Below are positions 23,494 to 43,945 of a stretch of DNA of 48,776 bases, piece by piece (positions within the stretch are counted from its first letter, which is position 1; each line of letters starts with the position of its first letter). The position numbers and the translations under genes are program-made. The DNA comes from a bacterium (GTDB lineage: Bacteria > Patescibacteriota > Patescibacteriia > Patescibacteriales > GWC2-42-12): contig JAURWF010000032.1 in the NCBI GenBank assembly GCA_030655095.1, positions 1 to 48,776 on the forward strand, given 5' to 3'. Under the pieces are notes generated by a model, which ran no database searches, was not told the origin of the DNA, and saw only the letters and a program-made list of their open reading frames with translations.

Positions 23494-24234
23494 CTATCCA
23501 TTAGCAACTACCAACCCCCAAACTTTGCTAGCACCGTGATGTTTTAAAATCTTTGCACACTCGTTTAAAGTCGCCCCTGTAGTAACTACATCGTCAACTA
23601 AAATAATCTGACGCCCTTCTAAATTATTTGCACACCAACTAAAGCAACCTTTGATATTATTTTCCCTTTGCATTTTATTTAATTTTACTTGCGGTTTAGT
23701 ATGCTTATTTCTAATTAACTCATTAACACTCAATTCTAAATTAAAATGATCTGCCACCAAACGAGCTAAAATTTCTGCTTGATTAAAGCCTCTCCACCGC
23801 CTACGATAAGCTGACAAAGGAACCGGCATAATTAAACATTCTTGAAAATTAAATTTTTGTCCTTTTTTATTAAGAAAATCATTTAAAAATAAAATTAAAA
23901 TTTTACCTAAATCTTGATACAACTCTCTAATAAAATAATATTTAAAACTTTTAATTAATTTACTAATAATTTTTTGCTCATAATAACCAGCAATAAGCAC
24001 ACCGTCCAAATCATAATTTAAAACGCAACTTGGACAAAATTGAGCAAAACTAGTTTTTTGTTTACAAGCCAAACAGGAATGTTCTGATCTTAATTTTATA
24101 TTACTAAAACATTTTTGACACAACCATGTCCCTTCACGACCACAACCCAAGCATTCCTTAGGAAAAATTAAATCTAAAAAAAATACCCAAATTTCATTGG
24201 CATTTTTAATTAATTTACTAAAAGAAAATAACAT
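23494..24234 (-). CDS. comFC: ComF-family protein (double zinc ribbon + phosphoribosyltransferase domain)
   Basis: 246 aa. CLGCG...CQKC, CLACK...CPSC. RRRWRGFNQAE. PRTase loop ILVDDVVTTGATL. Confidence 0.85.
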   Translation of the reverse strand: MLFSFSKLIKNANEIWVFFLDLIFPKECLGCGREGTWLCQKCFSNIKLRSEHSCLACKQKTSFAQFCPSCVLNYDLDGVLIAGYYEQKIISKLIKSFKYYFIRELYQDLGKILILFLNDFLNKKGQKFNFQECLIMPVPLSAYRRRWRGFNQAEILARLVADHFNLELSVNELIRNKHTKPQVKLNKMQRENNIKGCFSWCANNLEGRQIILVDDVVTTGATLNECAKILKHHGASKVWGLVVANG

Positions 24235-24846
24235 TTATTTCTCCTGCCAAATTGCGCTATCAATCTTCCAAGCACCTTTCTCGCGAATAAACTTAATTAT
24301 TATATTTTGATAAAAAGTGCTAGCATTAATTGTTGTGCCAATCGCTTCTTTTCTCTGATTTTTAATTAAAATTTCTGCTTGACCAGATTCACTATCAAAT
24401 TGCTTAACCTCAGTAGTAATAGCTTTTGTTGTGATGCCATAATAAATAGCTGTTTGTTGATTACTCGCTTGCGCTTGACTAATATAATTATCAGCCCAAG
24501 TTTGCATTTTAGAACTCATAAATAATTTTAAATCACGTATATTTCCATAATCCGACTGATTAGAAAAACTACCAAATCTCTCAGTAAAAGCTGAAGCAAT
24601 CCTTGCTAAATCGTCCTGATTAATTTCAGTCTTTTTTATTGGCGCCACTTTAATAGTCGTGCCTGTTGGAGGAACAGCGATTGTCTGCTCAATCGGTTTT
24701 TTTGGCTGATCTGAAATAACTGGCTCTTTTTCTACTGCTTCGGGTTGCTGAGAAGTAAATTTATATATAAAAATAACATAAACTATGCCAAAAATAAGGA
24801 TTAGTCCTGTTAGAATAATTATTATACCAACTGTTCTTCTACTCAT
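24235..24846 (-). CDS. N-terminally anchored protein with an alpha+beta C-terminal domain (possible VirB8/TcpC-like NTF2 fold)
   Basis: 203 aa. TM VGIIIILTGLILIFGIVYVIFIY. Its stop abuts the comFC start (24235/24234). The fold guess rests only on position and sequence pattern. Confidence 0.55.
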   Translation of the reverse strand: MSRRTVGIIIILTGLILIFGIVYVIFIYKFTSQQPEAVEKEPVISDQPKKPIEQTIAVPPTGTTIKVAPIKKTEINQDDLARIASAFTERFGSFSNQSDYGNIRDLKLFMSSKMQTWADNYISQAQASNQQTAIYYGITTKAITTEVKQFDSESGQAEILIKNQRKEAIGTTINASTFYQNIIIKFIREKGAWKIDSAIWQEK

Positions 24847-24873: not shown

Positions 24874-26766
24874 TTATAGACTATCTTCTTCTTGTGATGC
24901 TGCAAATTCTTTTTTAGCTTCTTCAATTTCCAATAATTGTCGCGGATCAGAAGTTATTAATTGATCTTCAGTGTAAGAAGCTACTACTTTTATAGCTACG
25001 TGCTTATTTCCTGCAAAAAAGATTCCTTCACCAACTCCACATTCTAATAATAAATATTTTTCACCCTCAGTAAGAACAAAAGTTTTTTGAATTAAATCAA
25101 TAGAAGCTGGAGACTGTTTAAGCAAAAGCTGTAATGCCGAATTGGTAACAATTGCCTGTCCATAAGGTGAAACTAAAAAATCATTGACATCCTGAGTAAT
25201 AGTAGTAACACCTAAATAATATTTACGGCAACGTTTAACTAACGCATAAACAAACTTCGCGCTATCTTCATGTTGCATCAACCACCATGCCTCGTCAATC
25301 ACTAAAACTCTTTTTTTCAATTCGCTTCTTACGACATTCCAGATATAATTAATAATTACATAAATAGCAATCGGTCGCAACTCATCTTCTAAGTCTCTAA
25401 CAGAAAAACAAATTAATTGATTGTCCATTTTAACATTAGTCGGGCTATTAAACAAACCGGCAAAAGTTCCTTGTGTGTATTTTCTAAGACGCATAGCCAA
25501 ACTTGCTCCGCCTTCCATGCCTTCTAAAATATCTTGAAAATCCTGCATAATCGGCGCTTCTATTTTAGTCAAATCACAATCAGCAGTAATATCTTTTTTA
25601 GCATAAGTTTCCAATAATGCCCGATCAACAATAGAATCTTCTTCGTGCGACAAATTTCCCAACATTAATCTTATTAATCCTTTAACAGTAATAACGCCAC
25701 TTCTAATAATATCTTCTGCCTTAGACTCGCCACTTACTGACCTAGGCAAATCAAAGGGATTAATTTTATTATCGCTAGCCAAAGAAATATTAATGTAAGT
25801 TCCGCCAACGGCCTCAGATAAATGTTTGTATTCATTTTCAGGATCAATAATAATTACATCAGTCCCCATCATCAAACTACGCAAAACTTCTAATTTAATA
25901 GTATAACTTTTTCCAGCCCCAGAAGTAGCAAAAACTACGCTATTAGCATTTTGCAAACTAAAACGGTCGAACAAAATCAAACTATTATTATGACGATTAA
26001 TACCATAAAGTATCCCATTGTCAGAAGTAAGCTCACTTGAAATAAAAGGAAAAGAAGACGCAACTGGCGAAGAGTTCATATTAAAAGCTATAAATAATTC
26101 ATCATTTCCTAATGGCAATGTTGAATTAAATCCTTGTTCTGCTTGCCAATAAACTCTTTTAGAATAAACCAATCGGGAACCAAAAATATTTTCAACATCA
26201 TTAGATAATTTATCAAGCTCTTCAATTTTATCAGCATAAAGAGTGATGTATAAAGCGAATTGAAAAAATTTTTCTGTCCCCTGTGTTAAAGCATCACGCA
26301 AAGCTTCAATATCTCGTAAAGCTGTTTCTCTCAATGGATCACGCGCAGCGCCTTTTTCTGCATCAGAAATTATTTGCGCCTCTAAATTACCAACTTTATT
26401 TTTAAGTTGCTTTAAAACTACTGTGCTATTCACTGGATAAAAAAACATCCCAATATCAAAAGTTGAATTTAAATTAATAATCGGCGCAAACCAACCAATA
26501 CTAATAAAACGTGGGTAACTTACAACAAAAATCGTTCTAACATATTTTCCTCCCAATCTTAAATAATTAGGATTAACTTGAAAACTTGCTGGAGCAATTA
26601 AGTCCTTAATAGAAATGGCTCCTTGACGATAAGTCTTTTCAGCCTCTACCATCTCCATTGTTAATTCAGGAATCTGCGCTATCTTTTTTGCTTGTTGCGC
26701 TTTAGATGTTGCCTGAACACGCGAACTTTGCTTTTCAGATTTTTTAATTTGTTCTAATTTAAACAT
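24874..26766 (-). CDS. VirB4/TrbE/ConE-like T4SS ATPase
   Basis: 630 aa. N-domain GGKYVRTIFVVSYPRFISIGW. Walker A VVFATSGAGKS. Walker B RVLVIDEAWWLM. TTITQDVNDF. Confidence 0.88.
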   Translation of the reverse strand: MFKLEQIKKSEKQSSRVQATSKAQQAKKIAQIPELTMEMVEAEKTYRQGAISIKDLIAPASFQVNPNYLRLGGKYVRTIFVVSYPRFISIGWFAPIINLNSTFDIGMFFYPVNSTVVLKQLKNKVGNLEAQIISDAEKGAARDPLRETALRDIEALRDALTQGTEKFFQFALYITLYADKIEELDKLSNDVENIFGSRLVYSKRVYWQAEQGFNSTLPLGNDELFIAFNMNSSPVASSFPFISSELTSDNGILYGINRHNNSLILFDRFSLQNANSVVFATSGAGKSYTIKLEVLRSLMMGTDVIIIDPENEYKHLSEAVGGTYINISLASDNKINPFDLPRSVSGESKAEDIIRSGVITVKGLIRLMLGNLSHEEDSIVDRALLETYAKKDITADCDLTKIEAPIMQDFQDILEGMEGGASLAMRLRKYTQGTFAGLFNSPTNVKMDNQLICFSVRDLEDELRPIAIYVIINYIWNVVRSELKKRVLVIDEAWWLMQHEDSAKFVYALVKRCRKYYLGVTTITQDVNDFLVSPYGQAIVTNSALQLLLKQSPASIDLIQKTFVLTEGEKYLLLECGVGEGIFFAGNKHVAIKVVASYTEDQLITSDPRQLLEIEEAKKEFAASQEEDSL

Positions 26767-26770
26767 AGTA

Positions 26771-26841: not shown

Positions 26842-27516
26842 CTATTCTATCTTTAGCTGGCTAACATCAACTAATTTTTGGTTAGCTGATGTTTCGGGAT
26901 TGTAAGTATTATAAAATAATTCAATTAAACTTTGAGTATCTAAAACTGCTGAATTAATACCAAGCGAAGCTAATCCACCGATTGTATTATCAGTTCGTCT
27001 AGTTAATTCAACGCGCCTTTGCAAAAATTTTTCCTCTTTCATTTTTATTAAAGAGACTGGTTTAAATAATTCAAGTAATTTAGAAAAAAAACCTTTTTGT
27101 TTATCTGACATTGGACTATATGGCACTATCGCATAAAACTTCTTGTTCATTATTTTGCCTAAAGAAATTAATTCATTAATATATTGAATATATTCAGTTG
27201 TCTGCATTTTTAATAACTCATTAGTTTGCTCTTTCTCTTTCTGTCTTAAAGTACCAATATAATTATCAATATTCAACTCGCGTGACTGAATAACAATTTG
27301 CAAAGAAAAATCCAAATTATTCAAAAAACTTACATAAGACATAATAATAGCATCTTGCTCATCTTCACTTTTTAAAGCAAAATTAATACTAGACACCATA
27401 ATAACAGCACGCAATGTCCCATCACGCATAATAATTGTATCATCTCTAATCTCAGCAATATCAAGACATTGCTGAGTTGAACTAGTTATTTTATTTGCAT
27501 TTAGTTTATTAGGCAT
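26842..27516 (-). CDS. Hypothetical protein resembling a VirB4 N-terminal domain without the ATPase
   Basis: 224 aa. LDIAEIRDDTIIMRDGTLRAVIMVSSINFALKSEDEQDAIIMSYVSFLNNLDFSLQIVIQS. No P-loop. Confidence 0.6.
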   Translation of the reverse strand: MPNKLNANKITSSTQQCLDIAEIRDDTIIMRDGTLRAVIMVSSINFALKSEDEQDAIIMSYVSFLNNLDFSLQIVIQSRELNIDNYIGTLRQKEKEQTNELLKMQTTEYIQYINELISLGKIMNKKFYAIVPYSPMSDKQKGFFSKLLELFKPVSLIKMKEEKFLQRRVELTRRTDNTIGGLASLGINSAVLDTQSLIELFYNTYNPETSANQKLVDVSQLKIE

Positions 27517-27537: not shown

Positions 27538-27975
27538 TTAATTTTTAACTTTTTCTTCTCCTTTATACGCGCCTTTAGTATCAACAATTAAAGATAATTC
27601 TGCTAAACGAGAAGCATTATAACGCCTAGCCGAAGGAATAACCTGTTCTATCTGCTTCTTATCTTCTACTTCATATTCTGCCTCAATTTTACCAATAGTA
27701 TGATTCCAAACGCGTACTCCTGGCCGCTTTAATGTTTGAGTTATATTTAAAATAAAAAAATGAAGTGGCCTACCATTAACTTTGATAAAAGAAAAAGCGA
27801 CTGCAATTATAAGAACTGAAATACTAGCAACTATAAATAAAGTAAAATCAAATATTTTATAAAAAACCGCAATTAACATAGCCCCGGCCAACAAAATAAC
27901 AAATTGTCTAGTTGTTATTGGTCCGATAATCTTGTCTTCAACGTCAATAAATTGTGGAATAGTAAATTGTTGCAT
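27538..27975 (-). CDS. PrgI-family (VirB3-like) two-TM T4SS protein
   Basis: 145 aa. MQQFTIPQFIDVEDKIIGPITTRQFVILLAG followed by a TM hairpin. Located just upstream of the 224-aa and virB4-like genes. Confidence 0.7.
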   Translation of the reverse strand: MQQFTIPQFIDVEDKIIGPITTRQFVILLAGAMLIAVFYKIFDFTLFIVASISVLIIAVAFSFIKVNGRPLHFFILNITQTLKRPGVRVWNHTIGKIEAEYEVEDKKQIEQVIPSARRYNASRLAELSLIVDTKGAYKGEEKVKN

Positions 27976-27982
27976 ACATTAA

Positions 27983-28068: not shown

Positions 28069-29532
28069 CTAAAATCGCAAACTTTTATTTAGGTCCATAA
28101 TAGCTTCAAACTCAGAAATCGTTAAATAATCTTCTTTTTTCTTTTTTCTTTCCTCTATTATAACATTAATTGATTTGTTAGCGCTAATGCCAGATTGCCC
28201 CATATTTAGATATAATTTATTTACAAAACTGGAACGCCAAGCTTTAATCCCTTCTAAACGTTTAGTGTATTTTTCTTCTTCTAATAAATTAATTTTCTCT
28301 TTAATTTTTTCAACAGCTTTTCCTGCGTCTGCGCCTAAACGTCGAAAATTCACAAGATCAAGATATTTTAATTCATCAATCGGACTCATTATCCGAGGCA
28401 CAAATTTAATATCCTCTATTTTAATTTTATTAGCTGACTCTGTCTGAGGCCTAATAATTGAATACTGTGATAAATTAATATTTTTTTGAGAAATCTCTTT
28501 TTTTAATTCTTTTACTATTGTGCTTTGATTTAAAACTGGTTGTTGCTGTTGCAATTTTTCAACAGATTTAATAGGCTCAACTGCCTTAGCTACTGGAAGC
28601 GGAGGCAACGGTATTTTTTTAACTAACTCAACTGACTTAACTATTTCAATTTTTGCAGGAACCAACGGAGCAAGTTCATAAGTAGTATCTATTTTTTTAA
28701 ACACCTCTTCTTTTTTTAACTCTTCCTCTGGTATATTCTCATTAACCTTTTTTTGTTTTGCCAAAGCTGTTAAATCATATTCAAAATCACGAACTCCGAT
28801 ATTTTTCAAACTAGCCATAACATCTTTTTTAATTTCCACTGTGTCCATTTTAACCAAAGGTTTTTGCTCTTGTTTTTGATCAGAATTTTTTAAATTACTG
28901 TCAGTAATAGATAAAGCTTGCTCGGCTAAATCATCGTCAAAACTTAAACCGCCAGTTTCAAATGACTTAATCAGCGCTTGTTTAGTTTCAATTCTGCTTC
29001 TAATTCCACGCAAATAAGTTTTTAAAAATTGTTTAAATCTTCCAGCTAAAACATCTGAACTAAAATTAATTTTTGCTTGACTAATTATTTGATTAAGTAA
29101 ATATTCTTCTGGCACAGCTTTGTTTGAATAATTACTAATTTCTTCAGTAAGTTTCGTCACTTCAGCCTCGTCATCAGATGAAAAAAAGAAACTAGCACCT
29201 TTGACTGACGTTTTTTCAACTTCTGATAATGACTTAGAAATTTCTCCATCACCAGCATATTTTACAAAAGGTTGTTCAGCTTTTTCAAATAGTATTTCTG
29301 TTTGCAAAATTTTAACAAGTTTTTGAGCATCAGCTAGCCCCAAAGAAACAGCTAAATTATTTTCTAAATCACTTAAAGTAATTTCTTTAATTATTACTTT
29401 TATAATTAAGACTGCCAATTTTACCCCATATTCTTTTTCTAATTGGGTAATTTTAGATACAACAGCCTGAGAAGAAATTTTTTGCTTCGCTTCTGCGGGC
29501 AATTTATCAAATTTGTCTAGATAATCAAGCAT
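28069..29532 (-). CDS. Hypothetical 487-aa protein (cluster member)
   Basis: Long ORF co-directional with the T4SS-like genes. Lys/Glu-rich, no TM, no recognised motif. Confidence 0.6.
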   Translation of the reverse strand: MLDYLDKFDKLPAEAKQKISSQAVVSKITQLEKEYGVKLAVLIIKVIIKEITLSDLENNLAVSLGLADAQKLVKILQTEILFEKAEQPFVKYAGDGEISKSLSEVEKTSVKGASFFFSSDDEAEVTKLTEEISNYSNKAVPEEYLLNQIISQAKINFSSDVLAGRFKQFLKTYLRGIRSRIETKQALIKSFETGGLSFDDDLAEQALSITDSNLKNSDQKQEQKPLVKMDTVEIKKDVMASLKNIGVRDFEYDLTALAKQKKVNENIPEEELKKEEVFKKIDTTYELAPLVPAKIEIVKSVELVKKIPLPPLPVAKAVEPIKSVEKLQQQQPVLNQSTIVKELKKEISQKNINLSQYSIIRPQTESANKIKIEDIKFVPRIMSPIDELKYLDLVNFRRLGADAGKAVEKIKEKINLLEEEKYTKRLEGIKAWRSSFVNKLYLNMGQSGISANKSINVIIEERKKKKEDYLTISEFEAIMDLNKSLRF

Positions 29533-29689: not shown

Positions 29690-30067
29690 TTAGCTCTTGG
29701 TCGCCAACTCTGGATTTTCAATTTCAAGTATTCTCTCGTAACCAACTTTAGCCAACCAGCGCTTAAACGGCTCTGCTTTAGGCGATGGAATAGATTGAAT
29801 AAGACGAAACAAGCCTTCGGTATCAGCGCAGTCGGTTTCATAATATTTGCCATCATTAGCTATTAATTTCAGTTGTCTACAGATTGTAGACAACTCAACC
29901 CCATCCTCACTTTTGATTCTCGTTTTCATGGCATTCCAATAAACACGTGGCTTCACGCTATCAGTCAACGCCTCAACTACATCCACAACCGAGAACCACC
30001 ATTCTTTATTAAAAATAGTTTTTCTAATCTTCCTGTTTTTAAATATAGCGATGTGATTGTCTTGCAT
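29690..30067 (-). pseudogene. Bro-N domain protein, apparently C-terminally truncated
   Basis: 125 aa. WWFSVVDVVEALTDS...CRQLKLIANDGKYYETDCADTEGLFRLIQSIPSPKAEPFKRWLAKVGYERILEIENPELA. From memory, homologues continue ~130 aa past the ...PELA point. Confidence 0.6.
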
Positions 30068-30133: not shown

Positions 30134-31054
30134 TTAACTTCTTACTTTTTCCATTTCTTCCTCAATAGCTTTTCTTTCTAAACTATCAACTGGATATTGT
30201 TCTGCCATTTTAATTAAATTATCTTTTTCACTTATTTCTGTTTTAGCTTCTATTGCTTTAATTTCTTCTGTTTTTACTATTTTCTCTTCAATCTCATCTA
30301 TCGGAATTATTTCCCAACCTTCGCCAGTGTCTGTTGGCATACTTTCTGGGAAAAATTTTATATTACGATATAATAATAATAATTTTCTTAACAATTCTCT
30401 TTCTTTACTTTCTAATTTTTTAGCATTTTCTGAATTAATTAAATATTCTGCTAAAACCAAATTATCAAAAATCCCGCTCCCATTTTTCTTAATAAAATCT
30501 TTTAACCAATTTCCAATATTTGGAGAATGAGGCTTACCATCCAAAATAAATTCCTTATGAGTTAATTTTTCTTGATTAACATAAAGTGCATTCTCAAGTT
30601 CTTTTTTAAAATTTAAATCATTAGCTAAGATATAAAAAAGCTTTGCATTAACAGCTTCAGCAATAACAAAATGATTATTTAGTTCATTAACCAACCCTTG
30701 TTTAAATATTTCTTCAGCTACACTTTTCTCTTCCAAAAATGAGAGTTGTTTATTTTGATCTAAATTCAAAAAATTTAATCTCCTAATAATTGGATTAAAA
30801 ATAAACTCATCTAAATCTTTTCCAATTTTTTCAGCAACTTCTCTATCTAGCTCAAACTCTCTTTGTAAATATTTAATAATTTCCTCGCCTTTTAATTCAT
30901 CAACGGCAACAAAAATAATAAGCGAACTTAAATCGATTTTATACTTTTCCTCTATTTTTTTCACTTTTACCATAAATACGCCACTACCAAATTCTAGTTG
31001 GACTATTGGAGGAAAATTATTAAATTTTTCTAAAGCCTCTTCAATATAAATCAT
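30134..31054 (-). CDS. Hypothetical 306-aa protein (cluster member)
   Basis: ORF 9 nt downstream of the VirB6-like gene. No recognised motif. Confidence 0.6.
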   Translation of the reverse strand: MIYIEEALEKFNNFPPIVQLEFGSGVFMVKVKKIEEKYKIDLSSLIIFVAVDELKGEEIIKYLQREFELDREVAEKIGKDLDEFIFNPIIRRLNFLNLDQNKQLSFLEEKSVAEEIFKQGLVNELNNHFVIAEAVNAKLFYILANDLNFKKELENALYVNQEKLTHKEFILDGKPHSPNIGNWLKDFIKKNGSGIFDNLVLAEYLINSENAKKLESKERELLRKLLLLYRNIKFFPESMPTDTGEGWEIIPIDEIEEKIVKTEEIKAIEAKTEISEKDNLIKMAEQYPVDSLERKAIEEEMEKVRS

Positions 31055-34317: not shown

Positions 34318-35523
34318 TTACTGCAATCTGCTTAAAAAATCCAAAATATTCATATGCTTAACGCCTTCAACCCCGCCTTCAACCATTTTATCCATTGATA
34401 CCACTAATTTTGGATAATTATCTTTTATTGCTAAAAGATTACCAAACTCTCTTTCTTTAACAGCTTCGCTACTTATAAGATACGCAACTTGAATATAAAG
34501 TTTTTCTCCTTTTTTTTCACACACAAAATCAATTTCTTTTTTACCCAACTGACCAATTGTTACTTTGAACCCAGATACTTTAAGATGCATAAAAACCAAA
34601 TTTTCCAATATTTTATTAATATCAGTCTGTCTGTAGCCAATTATAGAATGTCTAAGTCCTAAATCTTCAAAATAATATTTTTCATTAATTTCAAAAATTT
34701 TTTTACCATTTACATCCGACCTTCTTACTTTAAAAATAAAAAATGACGATGCTAAAAAATGAATATAATTTAAAATTATATTAGGAGCCATTTTAATTTT
34801 TTGTGATTTCAAAAAATCACTAATTTTTTTTGCCGAGACTAAACTGCCTACATTATCAGCTAAATATTCAACAAGCCTTTCTAAAAAATCCAAATTACGA
34901 ATATTATACCGCTTAACCACATCTTTAAATAAAATTGTATTGTAAATATTTTTTAAATAGTCATACACAATTTGATCATTAAGTTCCAGATTTATTAAAT
35001 ATGGCAAACCACCATATTTAATGTATTTAAACAACGCCTCTTCGGTATTTACAAGTTTATGAAAAACTAAAAATTCCGGATATGACAAACTAAAAACCTC
35101 AATTTCAACATATCTACCCGAAAGACATGTCGCCAACTCCGATGACAACATATTAGCATTAGAACCTGTGCAATAAATATCATGTTTACCTCCGGCCGAT
35201 AGATCTCTTAAAGCTTTTTCAAATTTTATTATATCCTGAATTTCATCAATAAAAATATACTTTTTCTTATTACCAGCTAATTTTTTTATATAAATAAGAA
35301 GATCCTTGTAATCTTTAATCATCTCAAACTCATATAGCTCTTTATTAATATAAATTATATCATCTCTTTTAGCGCCCTTTTTTATCAACTCATCCATAAT
35401 TTGAAAAAGCAAATAACTTTTTCCGACTCGCCTTTGCCCAACAATAACTTTAATAACATTTTTATTAAAAAATGGCGCTAGTTTTGCTAAATAGAAATTT
35501 CTTTTAATATATCTTTTAATCAT
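34318..35523 (-). CDS. AAA+ ATPase of the AAA_14/DUF4143 type
   Basis: 401 aa. Walker A GQRRVGKS. Walker B YIFIDEIQ. The C-terminal portion follows the DUF4143 pattern. Confidence 0.8.
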   Translation of the reverse strand: MIKRYIKRNFYLAKLAPFFNKNVIKVIVGQRRVGKSYLLFQIMDELIKKGAKRDDIIYINKELYEFEMIKDYKDLLIYIKKLAGNKKKYIFIDEIQDIIKFEKALRDLSAGGKHDIYCTGSNANMLSSELATCLSGRYVEIEVFSLSYPEFLVFHKLVNTEEALFKYIKYGGLPYLINLELNDQIVYDYLKNIYNTILFKDVVKRYNIRNLDFLERLVEYLADNVGSLVSAKKISDFLKSQKIKMAPNIILNYIHFLASSFFIFKVRRSDVNGKKIFEINEKYYFEDLGLRHSIIGYRQTDINKILENLVFMHLKVSGFKVTIGQLGKKEIDFVCEKKGEKLYIQVAYLISSEAVKEREFGNLLAIKDNYPKLVVSMDKMVEGGVEGVKHMNILDFLSRLQ

Positions 35524-35580: not shown

Positions 35581-35629
35581 CTGTCTAAGCTGTCTGAACC
35601 ACTGACAGTTTCTGCGGTTCAGATAACTT
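35581..35629. repeat. Family 1 repeat (hairpin variant); supplies the stop codon of the HEPN gene
   Basis: ctgtctaagctgtctgaaccactgacagtttctgcggttcagataactt. tctgaacc and ggttcaga can pair. Confidence 0.8.
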
Positions 35630-36005
35630 CCTTTTTTATTCCTGCTAATAAATCTTTAAAATGTTTAAGCACGTCGGGTAATTTACTATAAACCTCTTCT
35701 GCTATTTCTTCTTTATAAGTATGAACTGTTTCATTACGCATATCAACAAAATTCATCCAATCATCGCTGTATTTAATAATCCCTTGCTGATAAGCTTCAC
35801 GAAAACATTCTTTAGGCGAGCGACAAATAATCCCATTATTTTCCTCTAAAAATGCCTTAACCATCTTCCATGACAAATCAAGTGTAAACTCAAAACGTTG
35901 AATAGCAGAATCACGAACAATATCAGATTCTGGAACATCTAAAACTTCGGTAAAACGAATTAACGCTTTTTCAAATTGTTTAATAATTGCTTCTAATTTT
36001 TCCAT
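35619..36005 (-). CDS. HEPN-domain protein, HI0074-type nucleotidyltransferase substrate-binding subunit (putative toxin)
   Basis: 128 aa. RDSAIQRFEFTLDLSWKMVKAFL. Rx4H motif RNETVH. Confidence 0.85.
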   Translation of the reverse strand: MEKLEAIIKQFEKALIRFTEVLDVPESDIVRDSAIQRFEFTLDLSWKMVKAFLEENNGIICRSPKECFREAYQQGIIKYSDDWMNFVDMRNETVHTYKEEIAEEVYSKLPDVLKHFKDLLAGIKKEVI

Positions 36006-36010: not shown

Positions 36011-36319
36011 TTATAAAATAAATTCTATATTATGTTGCGCGACAGTTTTAAAATCACTAGACACAGTTTTAAAATCAACAACATCAATTTTGTAAAGAAT
36101 CGGTAATTCTTCTATTTCCTCTTTTATCTCGCTCATAATTTTAAGTGAAATTGGCTCTTGCCCTTCTATCCCAATATCAATATCTGATCGCTCGTCTCCT
36201 TTACCTGTAACACGAGAACCAAATAAAAAAACACGATATTTTTTAAGATCAAGATGTTTACCAATAATCTCTAATATCTCTTTTTTTAATTTTTCTGTTG
36301 AATAATGTTTAAGAAACAT
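36011..36319 (-). CDS. Minimal nucleotidyltransferase (MNT, putative antitoxin)
   Basis: 102 aa. LFGSRVTGKGDERSDIDIGI (GS...DxD). Sits 5 nt upstream of the HEPN gene. Confidence 0.85.
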   Translation of the reverse strand: MFLKHYSTEKLKKEILEIIGKHLDLKKYRVFLFGSRVTGKGDERSDIDIGIEGQEPISLKIMSEIKEEIEELPILYKIDVVDFKTVSSDFKTVAQHNIEFIL

Positions 36320-36523: not shown

Positions 36524-39500
36524 CTAATAACACCCAATTTCTGTGATAGTGGCAATCGCTGAACATTTCGCACTAGTGTTACAATCTTTACTTCCACCAT
36601 CTCCATCCTTATCCCATCGATGCCGTGCCGTACAAGATTCTTGCTTCTTATTCATAAAATTATGATCAAGCACATTACAACTTACCCAACCGTAACTATT
36701 TCCTCTATCATCACCACCAAAATTGCGAACACCATCTTTACCTAAACATTGATAACCATCCTCTTTCCACTCAGAGCAGTTACTCTCAATCTTACTTCCA
36801 GAGCCCATGCGATGCTCTGCTACTTTTTGTGTCGTGCTCCAATCCCCATACTTATTCCACTCAGTCCTGCCATTGCTATTACAATCCCCCCCAGGCAATC
36901 TACAAAAATAAACTGTTGGATATTCTGTACCGTTTAATGTTGTGCTGTTACCAACTCTGTCTGTAATTATTTCACCAGCATCATTAGTAACCTGCCAACC
37001 AGCATTATCAGCTGGACTAACACCACTAGCATGCGCCCAAACAACACCTCCAGCGTCCGCACATTGTTTTCTTCTATGCTGCACAGCAGTCACTACCGGA
37101 CGCACTAAATTATCTGAACACCCACTCTTATTGAACTCGCATTGTTTATAACTCTCGCTTGTACTACTACTTATATTACTATGATTATTGCAACCTAGGC
37201 TACCATGCAAATAATCAGTATATCCATCATGATTAAATTCAGTTGCCTTCTTCCAACAAGATTGCTGATTCAAAATAGGATTTATCATATCTTTCTCATT
37301 CCAATCACAATGCTCACCATTTGCCGTTTGAACAGCCCCATCTCCACACCAACCATCATCCCAATAACATTTATTGCAGGAATATTGATCAAGCCTATTT
37401 GAGCCAGTACTTATTTTAGTATCTATTCCATTGCACTTATCGCCATTATTAGAGCCACAATCACAGTCTTCTTCACCATTTACTTTTCCGTCGCCACACC
37501 ATTCACTTACACGGCTAGTTTCAGGTGGCGCTGACCACCAAAGTAAACAAACATCTGGATCTCCTGGAGAGCGATCATATTCAAGACAATGACCATACCA
37601 ACCTTTATATCTCATACCAGAATCATCATTATAAGCGCAAGACAATGAATCATTTTTTGGATAAAGCCGACAAGATTGCGGAGTATACCATTTACCATTA
37701 ACGCCATAATTTGTAACGCCATAATTTGCTGATTCTAAAACTGGTCTAATTTTTACATCATCAAAATAATAATCTCCTAAAGCATTGTCGCTAGCTGTTA
37801 AAATAACTTTAATTTTCGTAGTACTTGCTTGAGTTTTAAATGCTTTGCCTCCAATTTTTCCAATCTCAAGCGTCCAAGGTTTTGAAGAATCAACACTTAT
37901 AACAGTTGAGGAGCTAATTAGCTCTTCTGTTGTGCTACTTGCAATAGCAATTAATTTATATTCCTCTATTTTTATTTTTGCTTGTCCTCTGTTCATTCTT
38001 TGAGTATTAACATAAGCAGTAAGTACATACTCTTGATTGTATCTTACTGGAATACTTACGCTACTAGTAAGCGTTGAAACTTTATTATCAGCTGTTAATT
38101 TTACAAAATTCCTACCTTCTGGCGCATAAACATAGCAATCTCCATTATTATCCTTTTTAAAACAAATTTTTTCATCTTGCGATTCTATAGGATCATCAAT
38201 AATTTCACATTGTGCTATCTCGTTTATTTTTTTATACTCATTAATTATTTCTTTAATTATTTCTTTGCATTTTTCCAATACAGTTGTTGATGTGGTTGTT
38301 GATGCCATTAATATCTGACAATTACTATTTTTAAATAAATTTTTCTGCGTTTGCTCATCAGCTTCTTTGCCTTTGTATCCACAATCCCAATTAGTAGGCC
38401 AATCAGGATCTTCTGTGTTGTAAATAACGCTCTCAGTGCCAGAGGCATCTGTAGTAATTGTATTTTTATATAAAACAGATTCAAATTGACCGTTAAGAAC
38501 ACTCGCTGTTAAACCAATAGCGGAAGCTTGTCCTAAAGGATAATAATCATTTGGATAAAAACTTACACTAGAATTAGCCCAACCAACTTTGGCATAACCA
38601 GACATATTACTCATAGCTTCGGCAGTAATAGTGCTGGTGGCTGTCTGGTTTTGTTTTACAGTATTACTAATAAACCGAGAACAACTTCCGCTATCATTAA
38701 ATTTATTACAAACACCCACTTTTTCACACACTCCGCCAGGAACACCCGCTACCTGCGTTATTGTTTCACAAGCTAACCATTTATCACAAACACGATCAGG
38801 AGAAACTTTTAATAATTTATTAGCATTATTATTTACATCTCCCTCCGCAGTCTTACCGCTACCATCATTTTCGGTTATATTAGCATTAAACGTTAAATTA
38901 GATAAACTACTACCATTTTGACTTCTTTCATTAAATAAAACACACCCTTTTTCAAAATCAACCATCCCATTGCAATCACCTGCGTTCATATTCTGCTTTA
39001 AATTATATCCAACAACAGCACGTCTAAGCTCTACATCTGTACCAGTTAGAATACACTGAACACTATCACTAGTGTAAAATTGTTTACTACTAGTCGCAGT
39101 CGCTGAAAGACTATTAACTGCTACTAAATTATTTTTATTTATTAATTCATAAATTACCCCGTTACTATAGTTATCTCTCATAAAATCTCCTGCAGAAGAA
39201 CAATAATAATTAATACAATTATTTCTATTTATTTGACTAGAACAGTTTCTAGTAATACAGGCCTGCAGCGCAACCGTATCAAAAATCGGATTATTTATAT
39301 TGCAGTTTATGCTTCCATTTTTAAAAATATAAACTGTATTTGGCTCAACTTTAACAGTTGCGGTAGCTATATCCATTGAAAATTTACTGATTGGATCAAT
39401 ATATTCTGTACAACCAGCTTCTCTTGCTGGGCAAATTCCTGCCCACATATCTTTAGGTTGAGAAACAGAAGCTCCGCCAGTGCCTAAAGTTTTTAATGTA

Positions 39501-42500
39501 TCTACTGGACAAACAATATCTATTGTTTCTAGACAGCTTACGCCAATAGCACAATCATTATCAGTTAAACAAACCGAATTAGCATTAACACCACCGCAAT
39601 GTTTAACTTTTTTCTTATACCAACCCCAACTGTCAGTAGCTTTTCCAGTTATCTGTCTCCAATCACAAACCATATCACCTGGACTTTTAAAATAGCTATC
39701 ACCATTGCCAGCAGTCCATTTTTGACAACCGATAGCATTTGAAGAACATAAAATCTCATTATACTTATCGGGTTTATTTTTCAAATAAACATTACTATAT
39801 AACAAACTAGTGTCATATTGATAAGGTTTGCCCAAAAGTTGGCAACCTTCATCATCAGCGTTACATTGTTTGCTTTTATCAAAAACAACATATTTTATTT
39901 TATCTTCAAGCACAGTAATTTTGCTAGGATCATTATCGTTAAAAACCTCTTTTTTATAATTATCAGAATTTTTAGTGTCTATCATTAATTCACAACCAAC
40001 AGCAGACTCTGCGCACAAATCACTAAAACTACGCAAATTATGAAGAACATTATCACGATCATTATATGCATCGCAACGCAACATAAATTGTGGCGAAATT
40101 GCACCATTCAAATCTCTATCGCAAATATCAGGAGTTTGCCACGAATCTTTAATTAAATAATAATGATCAACAACTTCAGTTAATCTAATATTATCAATAA
40201 AAAAATTACCATTAGCTTTAATAATTAATTTTTCAGAAATATTTGGCTCATGATCTAAATTTGTCAAATTAATTTTATAAGAATTCCAATTATTATTACT
40301 AGACAATATTGCTGTTGCAAAAGTTGAAGTAGCTAGATTATTAGTTAATTCAGCAGTTAATTGAGTAGCTGATCCTTTTTTAATTTCAAAAGACAAAATA
40401 TAGTCCTGCCCAGCAGAAATAGTCTGTCCGATAACAACGCCTGCACTATAATTTCCGACACTTACTGCAAGCGAATGACCAGGAGTAATCGCTGTTTCTG
40501 AAGATTGCTCAACTGTTGTCCCGCTAATACTCATCCAATCTTGTGTAGGATTTGATAAATCTTCAAAATTATTATTTAAAATAAAACGTATATTATTGCC
40601 CGTACTACCAACATATTCTCTGCAACCATTTTGCGAAGCCGAGCAAATCTTTCCTTGTCCAGGGATTGCCATATAAATACAAGCTGATTGGTCATCATCC
40701 CAAGTTCCTTTTCTCTCGCTACAAGTAGAGCTAGAATCATCGCTTAAAGCAGTTTTGCGATAAGGATGACAATCTTCTGAACAACTAATTGTATTATTAA
40801 CTAAATGATAAGAAATTTGCCCTGCACGATTATAAAATTGCCTGCAATCTGGCTGATAACTAGGATTATTAGATAAATATTTATAACTCGCCTCATTACA
40901 AACAACACTATCATTCTCAGTTACTTCGGGATTTTCCCCAGCCTTTTTTAATTTTACTACTCTTAATTGAAAACCTGATTTATCAGATCCCTCCCAACTA
41001 TAAAATTCGGCACATTGACCTGCATCAGGCTTAATGCATCGTCTTAATGCAGAATAATATTCTTTAGCTTCGGCTCCTTTGCCTAATTCATCTAAATTAG
41101 TAAATTCATCACAACCAATAGCTTCGGCTGAACAAGTTTTTGCTGTTTTTGGTATAAAATAAGAATCACTCAAAGAATCAAAAGAAGATTTGCTTTGAAT
41201 AAAAGTATTATAACCGACACAAACATCTGGACAATAATCTTTTGCTCTTACTTGTGCTGGAATCTTTACATTATCTTTAATAGAAGTATATAATTCACAA
41301 CCAACATCTTCAGCTTTACAATCTGTAACATATTTATCACATTCATTTGGATCATTAATTCCATCACAACTTAGATAACCGGGGGCATATTTTTGATAAA
41401 CAATACCATTTTCTCCATAAGAACTATAAGTTGTAGGATCGCCACGTTCTAATTTAATAGTATCAATAATACAAGAAGCTGAATTAATTTTAATTTTTAT
41501 AGTAGTAGAAGAAGCTGGCAAAATATATGAAGTTTCATATGTTTGCCAATCAGTTCCTGCATTTAATGGAACAACGGTTTGATCAGCTAATTGAAAATTA
41601 TTTCCTACAGCACACTCTTTAGCAGCAAAAGACAAGGAAAAAGACTCGCCAACTAATGCATTAACAGTAATATCTTCTTCTAAATTACCTGATAATAAAT
41701 TACCTGATAATTGCAAAGCCTTAGAGCCATCATATCCATCAGTTGTGCTTGCCATTCCATCCCAAATAGTTCCGGCAAAATCTTCTTCAAAACTAGAGTT
41801 AGTTAATAAATTAACACCTAATCCTGTTTTAAGCCTAATAAATTTATGACAACCCTCATTTGTTTGCTCACAAGTTTGAACATCTTTATCTAAATAAATT
41901 TTATTATTAGTAGAAGTACTTACATTAGTGCTATTGCAAGTAAATTTACTAGTAGAAGCATTATAGCTAGCACAATAAGCAAGACAACCAACATTATCAA
42001 CATTGCATTGTCCGTAATTTAAAGTATTTTCCAAATAAGACACTGTCTCGCCAGCTGATCCGCGAAAAGTTTGGCAAGTATTATATTTTGGCTCGCATGT
42101 TTTTACATCATTCCCAAATCTCCATTCTCTTCTTTCTTCTGTGCAATAACCATATATATCGCATTGTCCATTATTTTTTTCTTTAATACAGGATTGTTCA
42201 TCAGCGCAATATTCATCATTACGGGCGATTGTTAATTGTGAGCTAGCACCATCACCAGAAGTTTCCGCAGAAAGTATTTCATTGCCAGACCCTTCTCGTT
42301 TACAATAATTAAGAGGAGCTTTAAGTACCCAATTTGGATCAACTAATCCTCTGCACCAAGTAGCGTCATATCCTTTAAAATCATCGTCTGACGCAAAACA
42401 AGCAACCATCTTTTCCAAAGTATTATTTCTACCAACATCAGTAAGATCGCCAGAAATATCTTTAGAATGATCTTTAATGTATTGACCAGCAACCTCCCAT

Positions 42501-43945
42501 CCAACAGGCAAAATCCTAAACTTACGAAGAATTATCATTGAACGATAAGGAAAACCTTCAAGATAATTTGGCTCAACTCCTGCGCTAGAAAAACCAAAAA
42601 TTCCATCTTTTTTTAAATACGATCCAAGCGCTTCTCCAACTGTTTTTCTTTCAGTAATAGCAAGACTAAATTTATCATCAATAACACAATTTGTTGGTCC
42701 AGCTTTAGTAGGATCGGGACACATTGTTAATTCAGTCAAAATATTATAATCACCTCGTACAGTAAAATTCGGCTCAATCAACCCAGCCAAACGATCTTTA
42801 GCCCCAGAAACCCCTTCATTATACGGCTGCCCAGCGTAGTCATCTAATCCACCCCAATTACCAGGATACTTTTCCGTAGAAGGGCCTTTATCTTCACTAG
42901 CCTTTCTCATTAACTTATTATACGCAGTTATAGCTAACTGATTTATAAAAACATTTGAAGCATCTACCAAAGCATCTCCAGTAAACTGCCCGAATTTTCC
43001 TGCTTGTATTTGTTCAATTTGTTCCTTTTCTGATTTTGCCTGGCCTGGAACGCCTGTTAATCTACCAGCGATATTTCTAGGATCCAACCAACCACTACCT
43101 TCAACTCTATCTTTCGCTTTTGTGTCTTTTAATAAATCTATATTGTCAGCCATTTTTGTCTGCAAAGAAAGTGCTATTCCTAAATCATTAGATTGAGGAT
43201 TAAACATATCCTGAAATTGAGTTAAAAAATCATTTCCACGCATAGCTTCTTCCCAGTTTTTTGTCATCTTCATAAAAGTACAAGCAGGCTTCTTCATTTC
43301 TGGTCTTACTTGATTTCTTAGTCCTAAACCAATTTTCCATTTAACATTAAAATCTGGTTCACACAAATTAAACTTTTTTCCAAAAATCCCTTCTTTACCC
43401 AATTCTTCAATAAAAGTCCCTGCTGCATTATCAGCAATATTTAAATAATACTCCTCCCAATTTTCTGTTATAAACATTGGCTTTTGCCCCTCTCTTCCTG
43501 AGCCAATATATGTTGCCAAATCAAAAGCCATCTGATTAAGCGCGGTAGAAACAGCTTTAGCTAATGTATTCGATCCTCTTTCTTGTACTGTTTTTATTAA
43601 CTTTTCCCACCGCACTTTCCATTTCTCAGCATTCTGTGCCTTTTTAGCTGCTTTTTCAGCCGCTTTTTTCTCTTCTGGAGAAACTGTTTTAATTACAGGC
43701 ATAATTGCTTGTGCAGTAGCATAAGCTTCATCTGTTCCCAAAGAAACATCGGGAAAACCATCACCATCAGCGTCAGTAAATTCTAATGGCGGAGGAATGT
43801 TTGATCCAGCAGCATTAACGATATTACCTATAACGCTAACACTAAAATTTAAAAATAAAAATATTATAAAAAACAATACACACGAGCTTAAAAAATCTTT
43901 ACTTTTTTTACTTCTCTTTTGTTGAATTTTATTTAGGCTTGACAT
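36524..43945 (-). CDS. Giant (2473-aa) secreted/anchored cysteine-rich multidomain surface protein
   Basis: Uninterrupted 7.4-kb ORF. N-terminal signal anchor CVLFFIIFLFLNFSVSVIGNIVNA. Cys-poor N-domain (aa ~45-560). Nine C-x5-GC-x2-[YFLMW] motifs. Three N-x-x-FE...[FI][IF]D[DNT][IV][KR]L jelly-roll/CBM-like modules. Two CGDG...E(E/H)CD repeats near the C-terminus. Confidence 0.85.
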   Translation of the reverse strand: MSSLNKIQQKRSKKSKDFLSSCVLFFIIFLFLNFSVSVIGNIVNAAGSNIPPPLEFTDADGDGFPDVSLGTDEAYATAQAIMPVIKTVSPEEKKAAEKAAKKAQNAEKWKVRWEKLIKTVQERGSNTLAKAVSTALNQMAFDLATYIGSGREGQKPMFITENWEEYYLNIADNAAGTFIEELGKEGIFGKKFNLCEPDFNVKWKIGLGLRNQVRPEMKKPACTFMKMTKNWEEAMRGNDFLTQFQDMFNPQSNDLGIALSLQTKMADNIDLLKDTKAKDRVEGSGWLDPRNIAGRLTGVPGQAKSEKEQIEQIQAGKFGQFTGDALVDASNVFINQLAITAYNKLMRKASEDKGPSTEKYPGNWGGLDDYAGQPYNEGVSGAKDRLAGLIEPNFTVRGDYNILTELTMCPDPTKAGPTNCVIDDKFSLAITERKTVGEALGSYLKKDGIFGFSSAGVEPNYLEGFPYRSMIILRKFRILPVGWEVAGQYIKDHSKDISGDLTDVGRNNTLEKMVACFASDDDFKGYDATWCRGLVDPNWVLKAPLNYCKREGSGNEILSAETSGDGASSQLTIARNDEYCADEQSCIKEKNNGQCDIYGYCTEERREWRFGNDVKTCEPKYNTCQTFRGSAGETVSYLENTLNYGQCNVDNVGCLAYCASYNASTSKFTCNSTNVSTSTNNKIYLDKDVQTCEQTNEGCHKFIRLKTGLGVNLLTNSSFEEDFAGTIWDGMASTTDGYDGSKALQLSGNLLSGNLEEDITVNALVGESFSLSFAAKECAVGNNFQLADQTVVPLNAGTDWQTYETSYILPASSTTIKIKINSASCIIDTIKLERGDPTTYSSYGENGIVYQKYAPGYLSCDGINDPNECDKYVTDCKAEDVGCELYTSIKDNVKIPAQVRAKDYCPDVCVGYNTFIQSKSSFDSLSDSYFIPKTAKTCSAEAIGCDEFTNLDELGKGAEAKEYYSALRRCIKPDAGQCAEFYSWEGSDKSGFQLRVVKLKKAGENPEVTENDSVVCNEASYKYLSNNPSYQPDCRQFYNRAGQISYHLVNNTISCSEDCHPYRKTALSDDSSSTCSERKGTWDDDQSACIYMAIPGQGKICSASQNGCREYVGSTGNNIRFILNNNFEDLSNPTQDWMSISGTTVEQSSETAITPGHSLAVSVGNYSAGVVIGQTISAGQDYILSFEIKKGSATQLTAELTNNLATSTFATAILSSNNNWNSYKINLTNLDHEPNISEKLIIKANGNFFIDNIRLTEVVDHYYLIKDSWQTPDICDRDLNGAISPQFMLRCDAYNDRDNVLHNLRSFSDLCAESAVGCELMIDTKNSDNYKKEVFNDNDPSKITVLEDKIKYVVFDKSKQCNADDEGCQLLGKPYQYDTSLLYSNVYLKNKPDKYNEILCSSNAIGCQKWTAGNGDSYFKSPGDMVCDWRQITGKATDSWGWYKKKVKHCGGVNANSVCLTDNDCAIGVSCLETIDIVCPVDTLKTLGTGGASVSQPKDMWAGICPAREAGCTEYIDPISKFSMDIATATVKVEPNTVYIFKNGSINCNINNPIFDTVALQACITRNCSSQINRNNCINYYCSSAGDFMRDNYSNGVIYELINKNNLVAVNSLSATATSSKQFYTSDSVQCILTGTDVELRRAVVGYNLKQNMNAGDCNGMVDFEKGCVLFNERSQNGSSLSNLTFNANITENDGSGKTAEGDVNNNANKLLKVSPDRVCDKWLACETITQVAGVPGGVCEKVGVCNKFNDSGSCSRFISNTVKQNQTATSTITAEAMSNMSGYAKVGWANSSVSFYPNDYYPLGQASAIGLTASVLNGQFESVLYKNTITTDASGTESVIYNTEDPDWPTNWDCGYKGKEADEQTQKNLFKNSNCQILMASTTTSTTVLEKCKEIIKEIINEYKKINEIAQCEIIDDPIESQDEKICFKKDNNGDCYVYAPEGRNFVKLTADNKVSTLTSSVSIPVRYNQEYVLTAYVNTQRMNRGQAKIKIEEYKLIAIASSTTEELISSSTVISVDSSKPWTLEIGKIGGKAFKTQASTTKIKVILTASDNALGDYYFDDVKIRPVLESANYGVTNYGVNGKWYTPQSCRLYPKNDSLSCAYNDDSGMRYKGWYGHCLEYDRSPGDPDVCLLWWSAPPETSRVSEWCGDGKVNGEEDCDCGSNNGDKCNGIDTKISTGSNRLDQYSCNKCYWDDGWCGDGAVQTANGEHCDWNEKDMINPILNQQSCWKKATEFNHDGYTDYLHGSLGCNNHSNISSSTSESYKQCEFNKSGCSDNLVRPVVTAVQHRRKQCADAGGVVWAHASGVSPADNAGWQVTNDAGEIITDRVGNSTTLNGTEYPTVYFCRLPGGDCNSNGRTEWNKYGDWSTTQKVAEHRMGSGSKIESNCSEWKEDGYQCLGKDGVRNFGGDDRGNSYGWVSCNVLDHNFMNKKQESCTARHRWDKDGDGGSKDCNTSAKCSAIATITEIGCY

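Follow-up and report, generated by a model that had tools for sequence, protein, structure and literature searches.

A probable Patescibacteria-clade type IV secretion system with comFC at its operon end in a Falkowbacteria/ABY1-type genome

Introduction

Patescibacteria encode chromosomal type IV secretion systems (T4SS) whose VirB4 ATPases form a monophyletic clade related to the mating pair formation type MPF_FATA (Quinonero-Coronel et al. 2025, PMC12102498). TrsD is the most frequent companion of these VirB4, PrgI/VirB3 and VirB6 are also found with them, and KsgA is among the frequent neighbours. The few VirB8 homologues are nearly all in the class ABY1, where comF, recG and radA lie near the T4SS. 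Most of the clusters have no relaxase, and the type IV coupling protein (T4CP) is rarely nearby (PMC12102498). Here, we analyse a cluster of this kind in the bacterial contig JAURWF010000032.1 (assembly GCA_030655095.1). The window that we studied is the entire contig, 48,776 bases long, and the absences we report apply to this contig. Between positions 23494 and 43945 it encodes T4SS components, a giant surface protein and, as the last gene, comFC. In all likelihood, the cluster is a chromosomal and vertically inherited T4SS of the Patescibacteria clade, related to MPF_FATA, that has lost its relaxase and its linked coupling protein and that belongs to a Falkowbacteria/ABY1-type genome. In earlier work, genomes close to ABY1 were recovered with the help of contigs that the NCBI taxonomy classes as Ca. 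Falkowbacteria (PMC11809585).

The function of these systems has been studied genetically in Southlakia epibionticum, where epibiotic growth requires the T4SS genes (SEML1_0006-0019), which are thus essential (Wang et al. 2023, PMC10633639; summarised in PMC12857230). The Southlakia system resembles ours: its subunits are Gram-positive-like, and neither a relaxase nor a coupling protein can be recognised in its cluster. It belongs to a host-dependent epibiont in which adhesin-like surface proteins are important for growth. It differs in its class (Saccharimonadia) and in the VirB2-like pilins and peptidoglycan hydrolases whose genes adjoin virB4 and form an essential array. A structural homologue of VirB8 has not been reported for it, and comF is not described in that cluster and is dispensable. 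Southlakia is the one species in which the Patescibacteria T4SS has been tested. Among genomic data, the strongest hint that the T4SS may handle nucleic acids is its conserved operon association with ComFC, RadA and RecG within a single large class, and this hint is already published.

Two other groups of systems are informative. The MPF_FATA systems of the pGO1/pIP501 type (TrsC-TrsD-TrsE, with the VirB8-like TraH and TraM) have the same order of a VirB3-like protein, TrsD, VirB4 and then a bitopic VirB8-like protein; they share the CD1110/Firmicute-type VirB4 and the lack of outer-membrane components. They are DNA exporters encoded on plasmids and possess a relaxase, a T4CP and a VirB1-like hydrolase. 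We found none of these three in our locus, which is part of the chromosome and is inherited vertically. The ComB system of Helicobacter pylori has neither a coupling protein nor VirB11, and by analogy an association of a ComF-family protein with DNA uptake is conceivable. ComB is, however, of the MPF_T type, belongs to a diderm and includes VirB7/9/10 and VirB2; it shares with our cluster only generic VirB4/VirB6/VirB8 homology. Searches with Pfam and NCBIfam detected no VirB2 or VirB7/9/10 domains of the ComB type in the cluster, and the organism is monoderm. In H. pylori, comFC is not known to be part of the comB operons.

The closest match is the ABY1 arrangement of the Patescibacteria-clade T4SS (PMC12102498). 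Like it, our cluster is chromosomal, has an MPF_FATA-related VirB4 with an adjoining TrsD, encodes PrgI/VirB3, VirB6 and VirB8, has no relaxase or T4CP nearby, and co-locates with KsgA and comF, and in relatives with recG and radA. The window copy differs in lacking a detected VirB2-like pilin or VirB1-like hydrolase and in carrying MNT/HEPN, DUF4143 and Bro-N insertions; nothing essential differs. The giant protein, the p186 family and the p306/p487 family described below are not named in PMC12102498. The window is a further instance of the published system, and both the finding and its interpretation are already in print. The first-pass annotation, made by a model from the sequence, had conveyed a sense of novelty that did not survive comparison with this literature: PMC12102498 describes the T4SS without a relaxase and the presence of comF, recG and radA around it in ABY1, and PMC11665869 the idea of ComB-like uptake. 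What we add is modest: a clean example, a structure-based call of a VirB8-like protein, evidence for a split VirB4 made of TrsD and VirB4, a comFC linkage that is quantified and phylogenetically mapped, and a list of conserved unannotated members that are candidate lineage-specific parts of the machine.

Identification of the T4SS components

The cluster comprises 14 large open reading frames (ORFs) on the minus strand, with intergenic gaps of 0-214 nt. The ORF listing bore out what was first described, i.e., that all credible genes between 23494 and 43945 lie on this strand, in the order giant gene, MNT, HEPN, DUF4143, p186, virB6, p306, Bro-N, p487, prgI, trsD, virB4, virB8-like gene and comFC. 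The only plus-strand ORFs of at least 80 aa in this interval (28175-28447, 31749-32237, 31996-32241 and 38631-38921) are all nested in larger minus-strand genes. Five products were assigned to T4SS components:

24235..24846, minus strand: VirB8-like bitopic protein, 203 aa (AlphaFold2 and Foldseek)
24874..26766, minus strand: VirB4 ATPase of monoderm (MPF_FATA-like) type, 630 aa (NCBIfam, Pfam and PDB profile match)
26842..27516, minus strand: TrsD-like protein, putative detached N-terminal domain of VirB4, 224 aa (NCBIfam, Pfam of orthologues)
27538..27975, minus strand: PrgI/VirB3-like small membrane protein (Pfam PrgI, two transmembrane helices)
31064..33436, minus strand: putative extended VirB6-like polytopic membrane protein, 790 aa (hydrophobic segments, Pfam of orthologues)

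The 630-aa protein scored 372 bits with the NCBIfam model conju_CD1110, a VirB4-like conjugal transfer ATPase (cut-off 325 bits), and also matched the Pfam profiles P-loop_TraG (3.7e-28) and AAA_10. The profile built from its orthologues matched the C-terminal domain of the Thermoanaerobacter VirB4 (PDB 4ag5) with an E-value of 6e-56. It has both motifs that had been read in it earlier, the Walker A GAGKS at residue 283 and the Walker B VLVIDEAWW at residue 487. Its match covers positions 153-734 of the 752 of the CD1110 model, and it lacks the N-terminal ~150 residues of full-length relatives. The assignment of this VirB4 to its lineage rests on the family model, the PDB match and sequence identity; the tree that we built is a neighbour-joining VirB4 tree of the relatives. 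The model for CedB gave 46.7 bits against a cut-off of 700, which corresponds to generic VirB4 similarity, and there was no CedA-like match.

The 224-aa protein had been labelled as similar to the N-terminal domain of VirB4, which was right, and it corresponds to TrsD. It matched N-terminal regions of two NCBIfam VirB4 models (VirB4_plasma, positions 92-253, 1.9e-9, and the CD1110 model, positions 2-105, 2e-5). Among its orthologues, which are 48-92% identical, 25 of 27 matched the Pfam profile TraC_F_IV. Since the 224-aa protein matches the N-terminal regions of VirB4 and the 630-aa protein aligns to CD1110 from position 153 on, the two would together amount to a split VirB4.

PrgI passed its Pfam cut-off (2.2e-7, 31.8 bits for a cut-off of 27 bits), and its position is conserved in the relatives. 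The 790-aa protein has an N-terminal transmembrane domain of ~330 aa, with 7-8 hydrophobic segments, followed by a variable, charged and hydrophilic tail of ~460 aa in which the fraction of K/R/D/E is 0.34. Conservation is limited to residues ~50-330, and the protein may best be described as an extended VirB6. Hidden Markov models (HMM) thus confirmed VirB4 and PrgI directly, and VirB6 through its orthologues.

The 203-aa protein, for which no family had been named at first, was modelled with AlphaFold2 from 65 homologues, with a mean predicted local distance difference test (pLDDT) of 82.6. The model has a transmembrane helix, a disordered linker and an NTF2-like domain in which three helices pack on a four-stranded sheet. 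Its top Foldseek match in the PDB was CagV (6iqt, E 1e-4, TMt 0.68). The other matches included VirB8 of R388 (8rtd_Y), PrgL of pCF10 (7aed), TraE of pKM101, TraM (3wz3) and TraH (5aiw) of pIP501, and the Agrobacterium VirB8 (2cc3). Weak Pfam matches were found among its orthologues to NTF2_YvbJ (five of 45) and to VirB8 (two of 45). The predicted structure argues that this protein is VirB8-like.

Several results weigh against these assignments. The TrsD/TraD model NF041427 matched the 224-aa protein (1.8e-6) with 28 bits, under its cut-off of 200 bits, and the hhalign comparison of the TrsD-like profile with the profile of the cluster's own VirB4 found nothing (probability 0.1), both alignments being of low diversity. 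The TrbL/VirB6 profile (PF04610) matched only five of 25 orthologues of the 790-aa protein, at best with 4.6e-5, and the window copy has no Pfam match. The fold of the 203-aa protein also matches the NTF2-like domains of ARC6/PARC6, which are not T4SS proteins, at similar scores, and part of the VirB8-like assignment therefore leans on genomic context. Searches of PDB sequences with the profiles were of little help: the VirB6 profile gave low-complexity matches only, the VirB8-like profile matched only transmembrane or linker regions, and the TrsD-like profile gave nothing useful. Neither a VirB1-like hydrolase nor a VirB2-like pilin was detected in the window. Finally, a coupling protein or a relaxase could be encoded elsewhere in the genome.

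In nine relatives, the genes downstream of virB4 and near radA include members of a family (c14, also c49) of Cys-rich secreted proteins. Read by eye, these have a hydrophobic hairpin resembling that of pilins, fused to a VanY/M15-like peptidase motif. They could possibly provide the VirB2-like and VirB1-like functions undetected in the window.

Conserved components without a known family

Four more proteins of the cluster recur in the relatives:

28069..29532, minus strand: p487, all-alpha protein of 487 aa (AlphaFold2, HMM, synteny)
30134..31054, minus strand: p306, soluble protein of 306 aa (hhalign to p487, synteny)
33651..34211, minus strand: p186, membrane protein of 186 aa (transmembrane segments, alignment with relatives)
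36524..43945, minus strand: giant Cys-rich protein of 2473 aa, secreted or anchored by its N-terminus, first gene of the cluster (sequence features)

The giant protein contains 4.1% of Cys and a single N-terminal hydrophobic segment (residues 22-40), and has no LPXTG motif. It matched nothing in Pfam, NCBIfam or the PDB sequences, and the Pfam scan included its C-terminal parts. A gene is found at its place, upstream of virB6, in at least eight relatives, and residues ~1911-2137 are conserved in these counterparts. It is a candidate host-contact or adhesin component.

The p186 protein has a charged N-terminal half and two C-terminal transmembrane helices (109-127 and 143-161). It is a diverged member of a family of ~200 aa encoded directly upstream of virB6 in most relatives that hold this region. 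It could be aligned with 15 of the proteins encoded there, and tblastn matched its equivalents in two relatives. The Pfam scan of the family returned no family.

The next two proteins are related. The N-terminal ~180 aa of p306 are paralogous to the N-terminus of p487 (hhalign probability 98.4%, E 4e-15), and p306 is kept between VirB6 and p487 in the relatives; p306 has no match in Pfam, NCBIfam or PDB. An orthologue of p487 is encoded upstream of PrgI in 58+ relatives, and the HMM of the family matched 2757 representative clusters at E ≤ 1e-3 among 1.84 billion representatives. The AlphaFold2 model of p487 shows three helical domains around a disordered middle, with pLDDT >90 at residues 1-84, 119-218 and 380-487. 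Structure prediction followed by Foldseek, which had been recommended for the nameless proteins, thus gave a VirB8-like fold for the 203-aa protein and no structural neighbour in the PDB for p487 (best E 4.5). Sequence searches of p487 in Pfam and PDB were also negative, and so was the Pfam scan of its family. By their conservation and these searches, the giant protein, p186, p306 and p487 are conserved components without any known family.

Gene order in relatives and genomic context

A protein search with VirB4, keeping one genome per species, gave 390 genomes, of which we retained the best 80. They are metagenome-assembled genomes (MAGs) labelled Patescibacteria, Falkowbacteria, Uhrbacteria, Kerfeldbacteria, Magasanikiibacteriota or Parcubacteria; some records labelled Gammaproteobacteria or Nanoarchaeota were treated as mislabelled. 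VirB4 is 70-95% identical between the window and these 80 species-level MAGs. We delimited the conserved gene order in the 80 loci by tblastn and ORF clustering: giant gene, gene for a small two-transmembrane protein, virB6, p306, p487, prgI, trsD, virB4 and virB8-like gene. The comparison of synteny proposed at the outset thus shows that this core order recurs in up to 80 species-level genomes, where it is flanked by housekeeping genes. Inspection by eye of the recurrent neighbour clusters in the loci extended by ±10 kb recognised no relaxase, coupling protein or integrase.

The window gives the same picture. Its GC content is ~31%, and that of the cluster is not distinct from the flanks. Outside the cluster, the ORFs encode housekeeping proteins (class II aldolase, TIM, Der GTPase, Pth, ClpP, PPDK, S6, SSB and EF-P). 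Three tRNA genes (tRNA-Lys, tRNA-Met and tRNA-Arg, 22797-23197) lie beside the comFC end, and KsgA and a Cache/HAMP protein are encoded on the other side. Pfam scans of all large ORFs of the window found no domains of a relaxase, a VirD4/TcpA coupling protein, VirB11, VirB9/10 or an integrase, in agreement with what had been read from the sequence. No repeat of at least 13 nt, whether direct or inverted, is common to both ends of the cluster. An ordinary integrative and conjugative element (ICE) would have a relaxase, a T4CP and an integrase with att sites at the flanks; what we found is a cluster amid housekeeping genes, vertically inherited across a class-level group. The identity of VirB4 across 80 species, the conserved gene order, the chromosomal context, the component assignments and the match to the literature are why we regard the Patescibacteria-clade T4SS as very likely the correct identity of this cluster.

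Two families of genes near the T4SS of relatives deserve mention. In three relatives, a gene of ~500-560 aa (c37), by eye a large serine recombinase, follows recG and a gene of ~170 aa; it lies several kb downstream of the T4SS genes and is not linked to them. A protein with an ORF6N domain (KilA-N-like, DNA-binding) is encoded near the cluster in the window (44726-45259) and in five relatives. It may act as a regulator or be a passenger of mobile origin.

Linkage of comFC to the T4SS

The last gene of the operon encodes a ComF-family protein:

23494..24234, minus strand: ComF-family protein (ComFC/GntX-like), last gene of the operon (Pfam, NCBIfam, motifs)

ComFC matched the Pfam profiles DZR_2 (double zinc ribbon, 7e-8) and Pribosyltran (4e-8). 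It has four CxxC motifs, at residues 28, 39, 54 and 67, and a phosphoribosyl pyrophosphate (PRPP) loop, VDDVVTTGAT, at residue 213. The NCBIfam models were matched with low E-values and with scores under their cut-offs, both for comF (TIGR00201, 5.4e-31, 108 bits, cut-off 233.55 bits) and for GntX (7e-29, 100.8 bits, cut-off 304 bits), and the PDB search gave a generic PRPP-loop match only. By E-value and domain architecture, the predicted protein is a divergent member of the ComF family.

The stop codon of the 203-aa gene (TAA, 24235-24237) directly abuts the ATG of comFC at 24234, with a GGAG 7 nt upstream of it, which bears out the zero-nt junction noted at first. ComFC had also been described as fused to the T4SS. 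This stands as adjacency in the operon and not as a protein fusion. A scan for sigma-70 promoter and intrinsic terminator consensus sequences showed no excess over shuffled controls, a result that is neutral as to a promoter of comFC's own.

Among the relatives, 60 loci are informative, i.e., they have at least 900 nt of sequence beyond the virB8-like gene. In 25 of them comFC is directly downstream of this gene and on the same strand, with a spacing of -24 to +295 nt, mostly <45 nt. Searches of the ±10 kb loci with a comFC HMM found the gene nowhere except after the virB8-like gene. The 35 remaining loci have a different ORF as the next one downstream, encoding a DsbA-like thioredoxin in 19 of them and RadA/Sms in 10. 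Many of these 35 have an ORF of ~250 aa at this place, and tblastn could have missed divergent comFC genes; Pfam identified DsbA-like thioredoxins instead, and the comFC HMM confirmed the absence.

In the neighbour-joining VirB4 tree, the comFC state is found in several deep clades, including that of the window, and the dsbA and radA states are found in nested clades. For this reason, the adjacency of comFC is probably ancestral for this part of ABY1 and was lost at least twice. The linkage is thus conserved in relatives, deep clades included, and the alternative that it is peculiar to the window does not apply. The genes radA (by Pfam) and recG (by eye) are also frequent near the T4SS of relatives (30 and 32 ORFs in clusters c7 and c6); neither is in the window. 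The giant protein is rich in Cys and dsbA occupies the slot of comFC in 19 of 60 relatives, which points to a role of disulfide bonds in the extracellular parts of the T4SS.

Possible functions of the system

In the mechanism that we propose, a VirB4 hexamer docked on VirB3, VirB6 and VirB8 would drive a macromolecule through the single membrane where the bacterium is in contact with a host cell, and the giant surface protein would provide this contact. The Saccharibacterial system, essential for epibiotic growth, would be the parallel, and the frequent dsbA neighbours in relatives would fit a disulfide-rich extracellular partner. What is transported, and in which direction, is less certain than what the system is. 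We lean, tentatively and at somewhat less than even chances, towards import: the T4SS would take up nucleic acid from the host or the environment, and ComFC (with RadA and RecG in relatives) would handle the incoming strand. It is the lack of a linked coupling protein, together with the DNA-handling neighbours, that makes us favour import. The idea has a precedent in published speculation, where the T4SS was put forward as a ComB-like route of nucleotide uptake for bacteria of the Candidate Phyla Radiation, which lack nucleotide synthesis (PMC11665869), and ComB is known to import DNA without a coupling protein (PMC12857230). The first-pass annotation had proposed a machine for DNA uptake or host contact rather than a conjugative element. 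Its second half has held, i.e., the cluster is not an ICE. The membership of ComFC in the machine and DNA import itself are still hypothetical; in 35 of the 60 loci the slot is filled otherwise.

These 35 loci are the first of the observations that count against a functional coupling of ComFC to the T4SS. The second comes from the only genetic test, made in Southlakia, a Saccharibacterium and thus of another class: comF and comEC were not among its fitness genes, and comF, comEC and dprA are dispensable, whereas the T4SS is essential (PMC10633639). ComF-family genes are present in nearly all bacteria, including those that are not competent.

It is on the variable downstream slot and the Southlakia genetics that the next reading builds: the T4SS would serve export or adhesion, as a device for effector delivery or a structure for surface attachment, and comFC, like dsbA and radA, would merely ride at the end of the operon while acting in a separate pathway. 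We hold this to be nearly as likely as import. A DsbA suits a Cys-rich giant protein and not DNA handling, and metK, ahcY and riboflavin genes (read by eye) are interleaved in the clusters of several relatives, which points to a loose membership of the operon. Effector delivery has also been speculated upon in print (PMC11665869). Yet, a coupling protein is a feature of the known monoderm T4SS that export effectors, and we found none linked to this cluster, nor any pilin in the window. The adjacency of comFC has moreover outlasted the divergence of the VirB8-like protein to 24-30% identity, which is longer than usual for synteny by chance. Whatever expectation is left by import and by export or adhesion falls to something else.

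A stronger version of import makes ComFC an integral cytoplasmic receptor that would replace the coupling protein and take single-stranded DNA from the VirB6/VirB4 channel of a machine devoted to nucleic-acid uptake; its analogues would be H. pylori ComB acting with ComEC/ComFC, and the archaeal Ced system. The coupled translation suggested by the junction of the virB8-like gene with comFC, the adjacency in 25 of 60 species without a second comFC in the ±10 kb loci, the frequent radA and recG neighbours (here and in PMC12102498) and the lack of T4CP and relaxase, as for ComB, are what one would expect from such a machine, which has in essence been voiced before (PMC11665869). The 35 loci that have dsbA, radA or another gene in the slot, with no comFC within 10 kb, and the dispensable ComF, ComEC and DprA of Southlakia are difficult to reconcile with a receptor that is integral. 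Pfam scans of the large ORFs found no comEC, dprA or comEA in the window, and the similarity to CedB is generic. Hence, we regard this version as unlikely. More improbable still is its generalisation, in which the ABY1 T4SS has been reversed to become the main route by which the epibiont obtains host nucleic acid, with ComFC and RadA/RecG as the acceptor replacing the coupling protein and with p306/p487 and the giant protein as parts of the import machinery.

The possibility that the cluster is a remnant or cargo of an ICE inserted beside the tRNA genes, which could be raised because of these three genes next to comFC, of the Bro-N, ORF6N, MNT/HEPN and DUF4143 genes typical of mobile DNA and of a VirB4 from the family of Firmicute conjugative elements, was rejected as highly improbable, given the lack, in the window, of relaxase, T4CP and integrase, of a shared 13-mer at the borders and of a shift in GC, the conserved order around a highly conserved VirB4 in the chromosomes of 80 species, and the absence of the mobile-type genes from the closest relatives.

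Lineage-specific insertions and RNA hairpins

Four genes interrupt the conserved order in the window:

29690..30067, minus strand: stand-alone Bro-N domain protein, 125 aa (Pfam Bro-N 5e-15, model positions 2-92 of 96)
34318..35523, minus strand: AAA_14/DUF4143 ATPase (Pfam AAA_14 4e-31, DUF4143 2e-14)
35619..36005, minus strand: HEPN-like nucleotidyltransferase substrate-binding protein, toxin-like (Pfam NTase_sub_bind 2.6e-31, HepT-like 1.6e-4)
36011..36319, minus strand: MNT-type nucleotidyltransferase, antitoxin-like (Pfam Polbeta 7e-13, NTP_transf_2 1e-9)

None of them is found at these positions in the relatives. Genes of the DUF4143 type occur at other positions in three of them. The MNT/HEPN and DUF4143 genes had been called insertions, and they are indeed lineage-specific: in the relatives, nothing but the gene for the ~200-aa membrane protein separates the giant gene from virB6. 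L001, the closest relative (95% identity in VirB4), has no Bro-N at the corresponding junction, where 55 nt separate p306 from p487. We conclude that the MNT/HEPN, DUF4143 and Bro-N genes are recent insertions of selfish or defence type and lie outside the machine.

The junction of p306 and p487, where Bro-N is inserted in the window, is a hotspot of insertion or rearrangement in nine relatives. As read by eye, without family searches, the genes found there encode MetK, AhcY, ribokinase-like proteins, riboflavin synthase, lumazine synthase and riboflavin-kinase-like proteins. The hotspot also holds small four-helix proteins resembling those of 23S rRNA intervening sequences, MNT/HEPN pairs or other genes of toxin-antitoxin type, or DUF4143.

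Two spacers of the operon are almost wholly made of a long hairpin on the minus strand: that between p487 and prgI (27976-28068, dG -43.8 kcal/mol, z -8.5) and that between trsD and virB4 (26767-26841, dG -29.7 kcal/mol, z -8.3). Both are composed of CCTAAAA/CCTAACA repeats in short tandem runs and of the complements of these repeats. In L001, the spacer between p487 and prgI also contains a hairpin, though of another sequence (z -5.9), and that between trsD and virB4 has none. These hairpins could be elements of RNA processing or stability, or attenuators within the operon. A third hairpin follows comFC:

23350..23455, minus strand: long hairpin of ~100 nt directly 3' of comFC, before tRNA-Arg (RNA fold, dG -50.3 kcal/mol, z -8.8)

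The window has no second hairpin like this one, which belongs to no Rfam family and has no clear T-run, hence it is not a classical intrinsic terminator. It is possibly the end of the operon or a structure that stabilises the RNA.

Other features of the window

The Rfam scan of the window identified five tRNAs and nothing else. Between tRNA-Met and tRNA-Arg there is an AT-rich imperfect palindrome of 33 nt, 88% complementary (23046-23114). A DUF5615/PIN-like gene (14332-14691) and a small upstream ORF (14688-14939) probably form a toxin-antitoxin pair (region 14332-14946). Thrombospondin type 3 repeats, which are calcium-binding, occur in three more predicted proteins (18-1151, 19484-20632 and 45524-46162), the last of which has an N-terminal hydrophobic segment; these proteins may be part of the cell-surface repertoire.

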